Shown here: positions 9,425 through 13,703 of the stretch, piece after piece | Layout: every line of letters starts with the position of its first letter | How positions within the stretch are numbered: position 1 is the stretch's first letter | NCBI GenBank assembly: GCA_944351375.1 | Contig: CALVPN010000003.1 | Coordinates: 1 to 35,808 of the forward strand | DNA from: an uncultured Bacilli bacterium | GTDB taxonomy: Bacteria; Bacillota_I; Bacilli_A; RF39; UBA660 | Direction of reading: 5' to 3' | Length of the DNA stretch: 35,808 bases | Translations under genes and position numbers: made by a program | The notes under the pieces: generated by a model | The model's input: only the letters and a program-made list of their open reading frames with translations | The model's database searches: none | Told to the model about the DNA's origin: nothing

Positions 9425-10615
9425 TTATCCTTCAATTTCAGAAACAACACCAGCACCAACAGTACGTCCACCCTCACGGATAGAGAACTTAGTACCTTTT
9501 TCAATAGCAATTGGGTGAATTAATTCAACTTCCATTGTTACGTTATCACCAGGCATAACCATTTCTACACCTTCTGGTAAAGTAATTACACCAGTAACAT
9601 CAGTAGTTCTGAAATAGAATTGTGGACGATAGTTACTGAAGAATGGTGTATGACGTCCACCTTCTTCTTTACTTAGTACGTAAACTTCAGCTTTAAATTT
9701 ATTGTGAGGTTTAACACTACCAGGTTTAGCAAGAACTTGTCCACGTTCAACTTGTTCACGAGAGATACCACGAAGTAAAACTCCTGCATTATCTCCAGCT
9801 TCTGCATAATCAAGTTGTTTTCTAAACATTTCGATACCAGTAACAACTGTCTTTTGAGTATCACGGATACCAACGATTTCAACTTCATCGTTAAGTTTTA
9901 ATTGTCCACGTTCAACACGTCCAGTAACAACTGTACCACGACCTGTAATAGTGAATACATCTTCAATACTCATTAAGAAAGGTTTATCAGTATCACGTTC
10001 AGGAGTTGGGATCCATTCATCAACAGCATCCATAAGTTCATAGATTGCGTTAACATATTTCTCTTCTCCTTCAAGAGCTTTAAGAGCAGAACCCTTAATA
10101 ACTGGAGTATTATCTCCATCAAATCCGTATTCAGTTAATAAATCACGAACTTCCATTTCAACTAAATCGATTAACTCTTCATCATCAACCATATCACATT
10201 TGTTTAAGAATACAACCATACGAGGTACTCCAACTTGACGTGATAATAGAATATGTTCACGAGTTTGAGCCATAGCTCCGTCAGTAGCTGCAATTACAAG
10301 AATTGCACCATCCATTTGAGCAGCACCAGTAATCATGTTTTTAACATAGTCAGCATGTCCTGGGCAGTCAACGTGAGCATAATGACGATTATCAGTTTGG
10401 TATTCTACGTGTGCAGTATTAATTGTAATACCACGTTCTCTTTCTTCTGGAGCTTTATCAATGTTTGCATAATCTGTAAAATCAGCCCAATCAGGGTTCT
10501 TATCATGTAAACATTTAGTAATAGCTGCAGTTAATGTAGTTTTACCATGATCTACGTGTCCAATTGTACCAATGTTAACATGTGGTTTTGAACGATCAAA
10601 TTTTTGTTTTGCCAT
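9425..10615 (-). CDS. tuf: Elongation factor Tu
   Basis: [39 protein letters not shown]. Start MAKQKF at 10615 behind AGAGGAGG SD. Confidence 0.99.
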
Positions 10616-10708: not shown

Positions 10709-12778
10709 TTAATTTCCACTCTTTTTAATGATTTCTTCAGCAATATTTTTAGGTACTTCTTCATAATGATCAAATGTCATAACAAAGTTACCTCTACCTT
10801 GAGTATTACTACGTAAGTTAGTAGCATATCCAAACATCTCAGAAAGTGGAACCATTGCTGATAATTTAACCACATTTCCAAGTGACTCTTGTCCTAGTGG
10901 ACGACCACGTCTACTAGTTAAGTCTCCCATAACGTTACCGAAGTATTCATCAGGGGTAGTAACATCAACTTTCATGATTGGCTCAAGTAATACTGCTTGA
11001 CATTTATTCTTAGCTTCTTTTAAAGCCATAGACGCAGCAATCTTGAATGCCATTTCATTTGAGTCAACATCATGATATGAACCATCATATAAAGTTGCTT
11101 TAACATCAATCATAGGATATCCTGCTAAAATACCAGTTTGCATTGCTTCTTGTAATCCCTTATCAACAACAGGTATATATTCACGAGGAACAACACCACC
11201 TACGATTTGATCAACAAATTCATAACCTTTATCAGGATTTGGTTCAAACTTAACCCAAACATGTCCATATTGTCCACGTCCACCAGATTGTTTAATATAC
11301 TTACCTTCACATTCAGCGGTTTGCTTAATAGTTTCACGATAAGCAACTTGTGGTGCACCAACATTAGCTTCAACATGGAATTCACGTTTCATACGATCAA
11401 CTAATACATCAAGATGTAACTCACCCATACCAGCAATAACAGTTTGACCTGTTTCATGATCAGTATGAACTTTAAATGTTGGATCTTCTTCAGCAAGTTT
11501 TTGTAATGCAAGTGCCATCTTATCTTGATCTGCCTTACTCTTAGGTTCAACAGCAAGTTGAATAACTGGCTCAGGAACAATAAGTTTCTCTAAGATAATA
11601 GGTTTCTTCTCATCACATAATGTATCACCAGTAGTTGTATTCTTAAGACCAACAGCAGCTGCTATATCACCAGTATATACATCACTAATTTCTTTACGAG
11701 TATTAGCATGCATTTGTAATATACGACCAATTCTTTCTTTAGAATCTTTAGTAGAGTTAAGTACATAACTACCACTAGCTAAATGTCCTGAGTAAACTCT
11801 AAAGAATGTTAAACGTCCAACAAAAGGATCAGTCATAACTTTAAATGCTAATGCACTAAATGGTTCATTATCACTTGGATGACGTTTTTCTTCTTCTCCT
11901 TTTAAGTTATGTCCTTTAATTGATTCTACATCAAGTGGACTTGGTAAATAATCAATAACTGCATCCATTAAAGGTTTAATACCCTTATTACCTAAAGCAT
12001 CTCCACACATAACTGGGAAGAACTTAGTTGCAAGGCATCCTTTACGAATAGCACGTTTAATCATTTCAACAGTTACTTCTCCACCTTCTAAGTATGTTTC
12101 CATCATTTCATCATCAAATTCAGCGGTCGCTTCAATTAAGTCAGCATGTTTCTCCTCTACTAAGTCTTTTAAGTCAGCAGGAATATCTATTTCCTTAGCA
12201 TCCTCTTCAGGCTTACCATCAAATTCAATTGCTTTCATAGTAACTAAATCAATAACTCCACGGAAATCATCTTCAGCCCCAATTGGCCATTCAATAGGTT
12301 TAGCATTAACTCCTAAACGATCTTTAATTGATTTAAGACTATAATTAAAGTCAGCACCCATTTTACCCATTTTATTTGCAAAAATAATTCTAGGTACCAT
12401 AAATTCATCAGCTTGTCTCCAAACTGTTTCCATTTGAGGTTCAACACCAGCTTGAGCATCAAGCAAAGCTACAGAACCATCTAAAACTCTTAAACTACGA
12501 CTAACTTCGATAGTAAAGTCTACATGTCCTGGAGTATCGATTATATTAAAACGATGATTTTTCCAGTGTACTGTAGTAGCTGCAGATGTAATTGTAATAC
12601 CACGCTCTTTTTCTTGTTCCATCCAGTCCATTTGACTAGCACCATCATGAGTTTCTCCAATTTTATGGATATTACCACCATGGAACAAAATACGTTCAGT
12701 AGTTGTAGTCTTACCAGCATCGATATGAGCCATAATTCCAAAGTTTCTTGTCTTCTCTAAAGACGTATCTCTTGCCAT
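10709..12778 (-). CDS. fusA: Elongation factor G (atypical G4 and G5 motifs)
   Basis: [40 protein letters not shown]; str operon position. G4 reads NKMG and G5 reads DAL. Confidence 0.98.
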
Positions 12779-12790
12779 AATTTCTCCTTC

Positions 12791-13258
12791 CTACCAACGA
12801 TAATGTGCATAAGCTTTATTAGCTTCTGCCATTCTGTGGGTATCTTCACGTTTTTTAACAGCAGCACCTGTTCCATTAGATGCATCTATAATTTCATTAG
12901 CTAAATTATCAGCCATTCCACGTCCTCCACGTTTTCTTGAGAAACCAACTAACCAACGTAAAGCTAAAGCTTCAGCTCTTGCTGGAGTAACTTCTTGAGG
13001 AACTTGATAATTAGCACCACCGACTCTTCTAGATTTAACTTCTAAAAGAGGTTTAATATTTTCCATTGCTTCATTAAAAGCATCTATTGCGTCTTTACCA
13101 GTCTTTTCTTTAACGATATTAAAAGCATCATAAACGATAGTTTGAGCAACACCTTTTTTACCATCAAGCATAACTGTATTAATTAGTTTAGCAACAGTCT
13201 TAGACTTATATATAGGATCTGGTAAAATATCTCTTTTAACAGCACGTCTTTTACGCAT
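12791..13258 (-). CDS. rpsG: 30S ribosomal protein S7
   Basis: [36 protein letters not shown]. Confidence 0.99.
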
Positions 13259-13289
13259 AATTTATCCTCCTTCCGATTTCTTTTACATA

Positions 13290-13703
13290 TTAATTCTTAG
13301 GTCTTTTAGCCCCGTATTTACTACGGCCTTGTTTTCTATCTTTAACTCCTGCTGTATCTAGTGCGCCACGAATAATATGATAACGAACTCCGATTAAGTC
13401 CTTAACACGTCCACCACGAACTAATACAACACTATGCTCTTGTAAGTTATGTCCAATGCCAGGAATGTATGTATCTACTTCCTTACCATTAGATAAACGA
13501 ACACGTGCATACTTACGTAAAGCTGAGTTTGGTTTCTTAGGTGTCTTAGTACCAACACGAGTACAAACTCCACGTTTTTGAGGAGATGGATTATTAGTTT
13601 GTTTTCTTCTAATTGTATTAACTCCTACTAAAAGCACTGGTGCTTTACTCTTACGAACTTTCTTTCCTCTACCTTTATGTACTAATTGATTTACTGTAGG
13701 CAT
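13290..13703 (-). CDS. rpsL: 30S ribosomal protein S12
   Basis: [32 protein letters not shown], with the Firmicutes-type insert. The KDLPG motif reads KDLIG. Confidence 0.99.

Follow-up and report, generated by a model that had tools for sequence, protein, structure and literature searches.

Translational GTPases are taken to read guanine through one fixed residue, the Asp of the G4 motif (NKxD). In E. coli EF-Tu, the residues that contact guanine are Asn135, Asp138, Ser173, Ala174, and Leu175 (PMC6144822). In Ras, as far as the available text of another report goes, the G4 Asp bonds N1 and N2 of guanine and the backbone of the G5 Ala bonds O6 (PMC11594714). These contacts imply that both positions changed in the protein described below face the edge of the base. 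SpoIVA, according to the accessible portion of PMC7952092, is a TRAFAC GTPase turned ATPase: it arose by duplication, retains G1–G3, has Ser/Thr in place of the G4 Lys and a poorly constrained G4 Asp position, and carries N, D, or S at G5. The same portion cites an engineered change of the Ras G4 Asp to Asn that makes the protein specific for xanthine. MglA groups 2 and 3 have lost the G4 Lys, for which an Arg is proposed to compensate, and have kept the G4 Asp, with a G5 motif DAR (PMC4316618, accessible part). In EFG II, G4 NKxD and G5 gSAx are conserved and RGITI is relaxed, as stated in the available sections of a survey of EF-G duplicates (PMC3150367).

The window (the whole stretch of DNA that we analysed, 35,808 nucleotides) carries a fusA gene between rpsG and tuf, in the order rpsL-rpsG-fusA-tuf (Table 1). 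Its product matches the EF-G profile TIGR00484 over residues 1–687 with 1183.6 bits (cut-off 659.4), matches S. aureus EF-G (2XEX) over its full length with 1031 bits, and has intact domain IV loops. The G domain was modelled with AlphaFold from an alignment (mean pLDDT 87.6, and 97–98 around both loops; 36 from the single sequence). Compared with solved EF-Gs, the model keeps the EF-G fold (TM 0.88, rmsd 1.5 to 5VH6). Fold and str-operon position are those of canonical EFG I (TIGR00484; S. aureus 2XEX, B. subtilis 5VH6, T. thermophilus 1DAR), and the difference lies in the pocket: NKMG stands for NKxD, and the G5 loop CGDAL, which aligns to CGTAF of 2XEX, has Asp for Ser/Thr. Where canonical translational GTPases have the G4 Asp and (g)[ST]Ax at G5, this protein has Gly138 and Asp260. 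The G5 background throughout the order is GTALGN, as against GSAFKN in canonical EF-G. On this sequence evidence we class the protein as an EF-G orthologue (EFG I) and file it as a pocket variant.

Table 1. Features of the fusA locus in the window
Feature	Position	Strand	Basis
fusA, EF-G, 689 aa, sole copy found in the genome	10709..12778	-	TIGR00484; tblastn of the genome
G4 motif N135-K136-M137-G138, Gly for Asp; codon GGT at 12365-12367	12365..12376	-	sequence
G5 loop C258-G259-D260-A261-L262, Asp for Ser/Thr; codon GAT at 11999-12001	11993..12007	-	sequence
G1 P-loop AHIDAGKTT, intact	12704..12730	-	sequence; same in 94/95 swapped rows
Switch I ERGITI, intact	12590..12607	-	kept in 95/95 swapped rows
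G3 DTPGH with the catalytic His, intact	12524..12538	-	kept in 95/95 swapped rows
G-domain-coding block (approximate), codons 1 to ~330, traded as a unit among relatives	11789..12778	-	nucleotide identities; trees of gene parts
tuf, EF-Tu with the canonical motifs NKCD and GSAL, internal control	9425..10615	-	profile and motif reading
rpsG and rpsL (names presumed from recognition of the sequences), completing the str operon	12791..13703	-	ORF translations

We found no second EF-G by tblastn in the 923-kb genome, which is 85% complete; the only matches besides fusA were TypA, LepA, IF2, and EF-Tu. Like EFG II, as portrayed in the accessible sections of the survey, the protein has its divergence concentrated in the G domain, but the pattern is the reverse: G4 and G5 are changed and RGITI is intact. 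With RGITI intact, a single copy found, and a score of 532 on the EF-G2 profile NF009377 (cut-off 890), we rejected its identification as an EFG II paralogue.

A sequence-only reading of the window had reported Gly at codon 138, Asp at codon 260 in the context CGDALGNKG, and an adjacent EF-Tu that keeps NKCD and GSAL. Re-reading the sequence confirmed all three. The same reading pointed to atypical residues nearby, EPQMET and HGGNIH; these are real, but canonical genomes of the genus have them too, so they are not tied to the swap. It had further cautioned that the G4 change creates a perfect 9-nt tandem and might be an artefact at that site. Among 25 swapped genomes of the same genus, 13 have the repeat in perfect form, and 12 keep Gly although synonymous changes interrupt the repeat, so the caution fails. 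We also compared fusA with contigs of four public runs, i.e., with assemblies and not raw reads, and contigs of these other runs give Gly138: an RNA-library contig (X16 record 12, 11838–12538) has 11 differences, none in codon 138 or 260, another contig (X15 record 7) has none over codon 138, and those of two DNA runs are only consistent with both codons. The gut runs listed with matching sequence are mostly from chicken. The best 120 homologues all carry NKMGKMG and CGDALGNK; as they were ranked by likeness to the query, they show that the swap is real and not how frequent it is. Among named records, the nearest carry the label Candidatus Onthousia faecipullorum (L179 and P0066, the former 98.5% identical over residues 35–244), a genus that we take to belong to the Bacilli order RF39.

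The dN/dS of fusA against ten swapped relatives is 0.045–0.12, which shows purifying selection. A decaying copy beside a canonical fusA, which would have undone the earlier reading, was thus rejected for this genome, where tblastn of the 85%-complete assembly gave no second fusA and the gene is constrained. That the whole pattern comes from a sequencing artefact or a decaying gene is, in our judgement, extremely improbable. The tandem and the incompleteness of the genome would leave some room for it, but the assemblies of other runs agree, synonymous variants break the tandem, the dN/dS values are low, and 74 of 369 genomes combine the G5 Asp with a non-Asp G4 through several different G4 codons. 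Separately, one relative (G051, 74% complete and 4% contaminated) has two partial fusA genes, one swapped and one canonical, on separate contigs (C33 and C63; L039 and L056), a pair that represents either contamination or a second copy.

We surveyed the order, taken here to be the RF39 Bacilli. We drew 401 genomes; 367 had a match to the G domain, 369 were readable, and 32 gave no reading. The readable genomes comprise 294 with the canonical pocket, 74 with Asp at G5 and another residue at G4 (hereafter swapped), one with neither Asp, and none with both. Asp at G5 with any residue at G4 was matched in 73 genomes from 30 of 145 genera, with no control matches, and G4 Asp with Ser/Thr at G5 in 276 other genomes of the order. 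The 20 genomes that had a G-domain match but fitted neither pattern were read singly: 18 are canonical, one has Cys/Asp (G4/G5) over two contigs, and one, G128, has Asn/Ala. The swapped pocket is found in about one in five of the related species checked. Beside the G5 Asp, the G4 residue in the 73 matches is Gly (42), Glu (16), Cys (6), Ala (5), Thr (3), or Ser (1), and never Asp. Loss of the G4 Asp is accompanied by the G5 Asp in 74 of 75 genomes, and a G5 Asp beside an intact G4 Asp was seen in none of the 369 genomes of the order and none of 70 genomes of Gracilibacteria. The co-occurrence of the two changes proposed from the single locus therefore takes the form, in the census, of a strict mutual exclusion of the two Asp. 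In these matches, the fixed element is the G5 Asp, and it is G4 that becomes free.

The two pockets coexist at short distances. In the query's own genus, both sites lie on one contig in 38 of 53 genomes, of which 25 are Gly/Asp, 12 Asp/Thr, and one Gly/Thr (G019). Four genera carry both alleles, with the swapped form in 7 of 11, 5 of 9, 7 of 12, and 9 of 21 genomes. Two further residues are enriched with the swap: Thr26 and Asp143 occur in 76 and 77 of 77 swapped rows, versus 24 and 28 of 78 others, with exceptions among later matches. N135 and K136 are invariant and A261 nearly so in a 134-row alignment. EF-Tu has NKCD and GSAL in all 20 Gly/Asp loci with a readable tuf.

We think, with confidence only a little past even, that the base-reading carboxylate has moved from G4 to G5 and that this EF-G still uses GTP. 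Asp260 would likely read guanine in place of the lost G4 Asp, perhaps with looser discrimination. From G5 it would reach the space once held by the G4 carboxylate; two carboxylates in that space would clash, which would explain why Asp/Asp is never seen. Once the G5 Asp is present, the G4 side chain would be freed from selection. States with a single change would be poor, so that the two sites would travel together. An Asp260 standing in for the lost carboxylate would hence account at once for the absence of Asp/Asp, the free G4, and ready reversals, and near-identical species running either pocket fit a near-equivalent function. The other GTPases picked by motif in this genome point the same way. 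N/TKxD is retained by EF-Tu, TypA, LepA, IF2, Era, Der, MnmE, Ffh, FtsY, and two circularly permuted GTPases (names beyond fusA and tuf are our presumption from their motifs); the change is thus confined to EF-G, and the cell continues to rely on GTP. The exception among the GTPases picked by motif is a SpoIVA-like P-loop protein (G000:C18:11887-13389), recognised by motif only. MglA groups 2 and 3, in the accessible account, are alike in that a base-contacting residue is proposed to be handed over from G4 to G5; they differ in that the Lys is lost there and the G4 Asp stays, whereas the query loses the G4 Asp.

Several points sit badly with such a relocation. A carboxylate at 260 could repel O6 of guanine and instead accept a bond from N6 of adenine. 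Glu at G4, present in 16 of 73 matches as NKME and spread over several genera (including L340–L345), is unexplained by a simple model in which the G4 Asp makes room. Two genomes, G019 (Gly/Thr) and G128 (Asn/Ala), appear from their sequences to have neither Asp. Repeated origin in nucleotide-dependent lineages with small genomes is hard to explain if the pockets are exactly equivalent. Finally, the poorly constrained G4 Asp position of the ATPase SpoIVA, with N, D, or S at G5, resembles the relaxed G4 seen here.

To mask both motifs, we dropped columns 133–146 and 256–268 and built a FastTree phylogeny from 207 distinct full-length rows. This set was enriched for swapped rows by a scan for G4-Gly, and the order census is the unbiased count. 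The state changes 17 times at each site of the masked tree. In 14 independent pairs across supported branches, the two sites differ the same way in 12.9, the opposite way in 0, and show no difference in 1.1 (averages; sign test p ~0.0002). The number of origins of the swap is uncertain from these sequences: changes vary with the part of the gene, from 11 on the G-domain tree to 31 on the C-terminal tree, and among 53 close genomes there are 9 on rpsL+rpsG, 9 on the 3' part of fusA, and 4 on each of two 5' parts. The trees of gene parts thus disagree. In one pair, the canonical G269 and the swapped G433, nucleotide identity is 0.73–0.81 over codons 1–330 and 0.97–0.99 over codons 331–689. Together with the conflict between part trees, this drop shows that the G-domain block is exchanged between species, and it moves both ways. 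The joint changes run in both directions, partly by recombination of this block.

The canonical pocket has also been regained. G045 is canonical at both motifs and 94–100% identical to its swapped kin in all other windows. Five genomes inside a swapped clade have NKMD and CATAL, and a non-Gly residue at 259 is otherwise found only in swapped forms. G019 is like one canonical species over codons 256–330 and like its swapped kin elsewhere, a mosaic that makes it either a recombinant or a chimeric assembly. From these comparisons, the pair of sites is best described as a recurrent, reversible, recombining polymorphism and not a one-off. The proposal that the paired changes reflect compensation or changed specificity, and not error, is therefore well supported: none of the three results named in advance as fatal to it came up. 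The sequences favour neither of the two decisively.

The polymorphism itself raises a further, rather unlikely explanation: the protein would be a retuned GTPase, with altered affinity for GDP, ppGpp, or an antagonist of EF-G, and fluctuating selection in the gut would keep both alleles. Their presence inside the four mixed genera and the movement of the block in both directions between species are what one would expect of it, but no antagonist or regulatory partner was identified, and neutral alleles, too, can persist across species when a conserved gene recombines often.

To look outside the order, we scanned 46 of 64 parts of the GTDB species genomes for EF-G-like G4-Gly, with a pattern for Gly only, and obtained at least 119 loci, 91 EF-G and 28 other. 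All 58 EF-Gs that reach G5 have Asp there, and the other 33 end before G5. Most (89) are 66–100% identical to the query; the two others, labelled Gracilibacteria and Peribacteria, are about 60% identical. We read 70 of the 97 matching genomes in the class of the Gracilibacteria genome: 66 have Asp/Ser-Thr, one Asp/Ala, two Gly/Asp (the genomes that prompted this survey), and one Asn/Asp. An order-level search around G457 covered two genomes only. The 68 of the 70 G domains with enough sequence form one clade apart from the RF39 order (support 99), within which the three swapped G domains lie apart from one another, at three positions with weak local support. Transfer of a whole G domain between the RF39 order and Gracilibacteria is thus unsupported.

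The Asn/Asp case, G463 (L278), has like the query lost the G4 Asp (NKIN) and gained the G5 Asp. Unlike the query, whose loop keeps its length, it belongs to another phylum and has a rebuilt and shortened GGDGR loop (GGDGRG), in an open frame of 1205 aa. G128 (L377), a single genome, has NKMN with CGAAL, and its state is possibly an intermediate. EF-Tu D138N is an engineered xanthine-specific GTPase, and G128 and G463 carry Asn naturally at the position altered in such enzymes. Those are single laboratory substitutions, whereas in the query the loss comes with an Asp at a second site, in a natural essential factor.

Bacteroides have an EF-G2 paralogue that is a nucleotide-independent or GTPase-dead translocase. 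With both guanine motifs off consensus, the query could be imagined to work likewise, and we regard this as very improbable: of 95 swapped rows, 94 retain G1 and all 95 retain RGITI and DTPGH, the genome yielded no canonical copy beside this one, and the strict need for the G5 Asp implies that a ligand is still read. One swapped EF-G (L090) has the P-loop AHIDAVKTT; this is a single record and may be an error.

The purine context bears on the main rival reading, which we hold as less likely than not: that the fuel has changed, with EF-G using ATP, or ATP and GTP alike. Loss of the G4 Asp would remove the filter against N1 of adenine, and the G5 Asp would accept a bond from N6. Cells unable to make GMP would in this way save guanine nucleotides, and their EF-G would evade ppGpp. 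We compared 40 swapped and 40 canonical genomes, hand-picked mostly from mixed genera. GMP synthase was found in 0 of the 80. The search of the query genome (85% complete) gave neither IMPDH nor NDK, and its single match to the PRTase fold reads as a PRPP synthetase; it did give guanylate kinase, a Ham1 protein, and three genes with a RelA/SpoT domain. Such a setting would suit a factor running on ATP, as would the separate cases in Gracilibacteria, the spread of two alleles across genera, which would fit balancing selection, and a G4 that is free but never Asp, as in the GTPase-derived SpoIVA (PMC7952092, accessible portion). But EF-Tu and IF2 stay canonical, the canonical pocket returns repeatedly, and the two purine gene families tested are alike in both groups (PRTase-fold genes occur in 21 of the 40 genomes of each), i.e., no link of the swap to purine gene content appears for these two families. 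In 38 of the 80 genomes there is no PRTase-fold match at all.

The likeness to SpoIVA, within what the accessible portion of its description covers, is also partial. Both have a relaxed G4 Asp position (six residue types among 73 matches here) and both can have Asp at G5. SpoIVA has replaced its G4 Lys, whereas K136 is invariant here, as is the N, and A261 nearly so; its G5 varies between N, D, and S, whereas here the G5 Asp accompanies the loss of the G4 Asp almost without exception; and SpoIVA derives from a duplicate, whereas the query fusA is the housekeeping copy. In its widest form, which we consider doubtful, the idea of a changed fuel would have about one-fifth of the RF39 gut Bacilli use an ATP-driven or purine-indifferent EF-G, encoded by a G-domain cassette traded between species. 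Fluctuations in nucleotide supply or ppGpp would maintain this cassette against the allele that uses GTP only, and Patescibacteria would have arrived at it independently.

We found no description of a G4/G5 Asp swap in EF-G in the openly accessible literature that we searched, mostly at the level of abstracts and without supplements; the same search gave no confirmation of Toc34 Glu210 as a precedent for a G5 acid that reads guanine. The evolutionary evidence argues strongly for a real new EF-G variant with a coupled two-state pocket. An essential factor here occurs naturally in two mutually exclusive pocket states, and close relatives carry either in nearly the same protein. The pair offers a clean two-site test of how GTPases discriminate between G and A, and of whether GTP itself is required for translocation. 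If the relocated carboxylate with continued use of GTP is the correct reading, the protein clearly exemplifies reversible compensatory evolution of a core enzyme and cautions that annotation based on motifs misreads such proteins. If ATP is used, this would be a housekeeping EF-G with another fuel, independent of GTP pools and perhaps of ppGpp. The order also holds some variety outside the swap: several EF-Gs with a canonical G4 (L372–L388) have G5 tails GSAKAN, GSAKGN, or GSGKAN together with Phe26.
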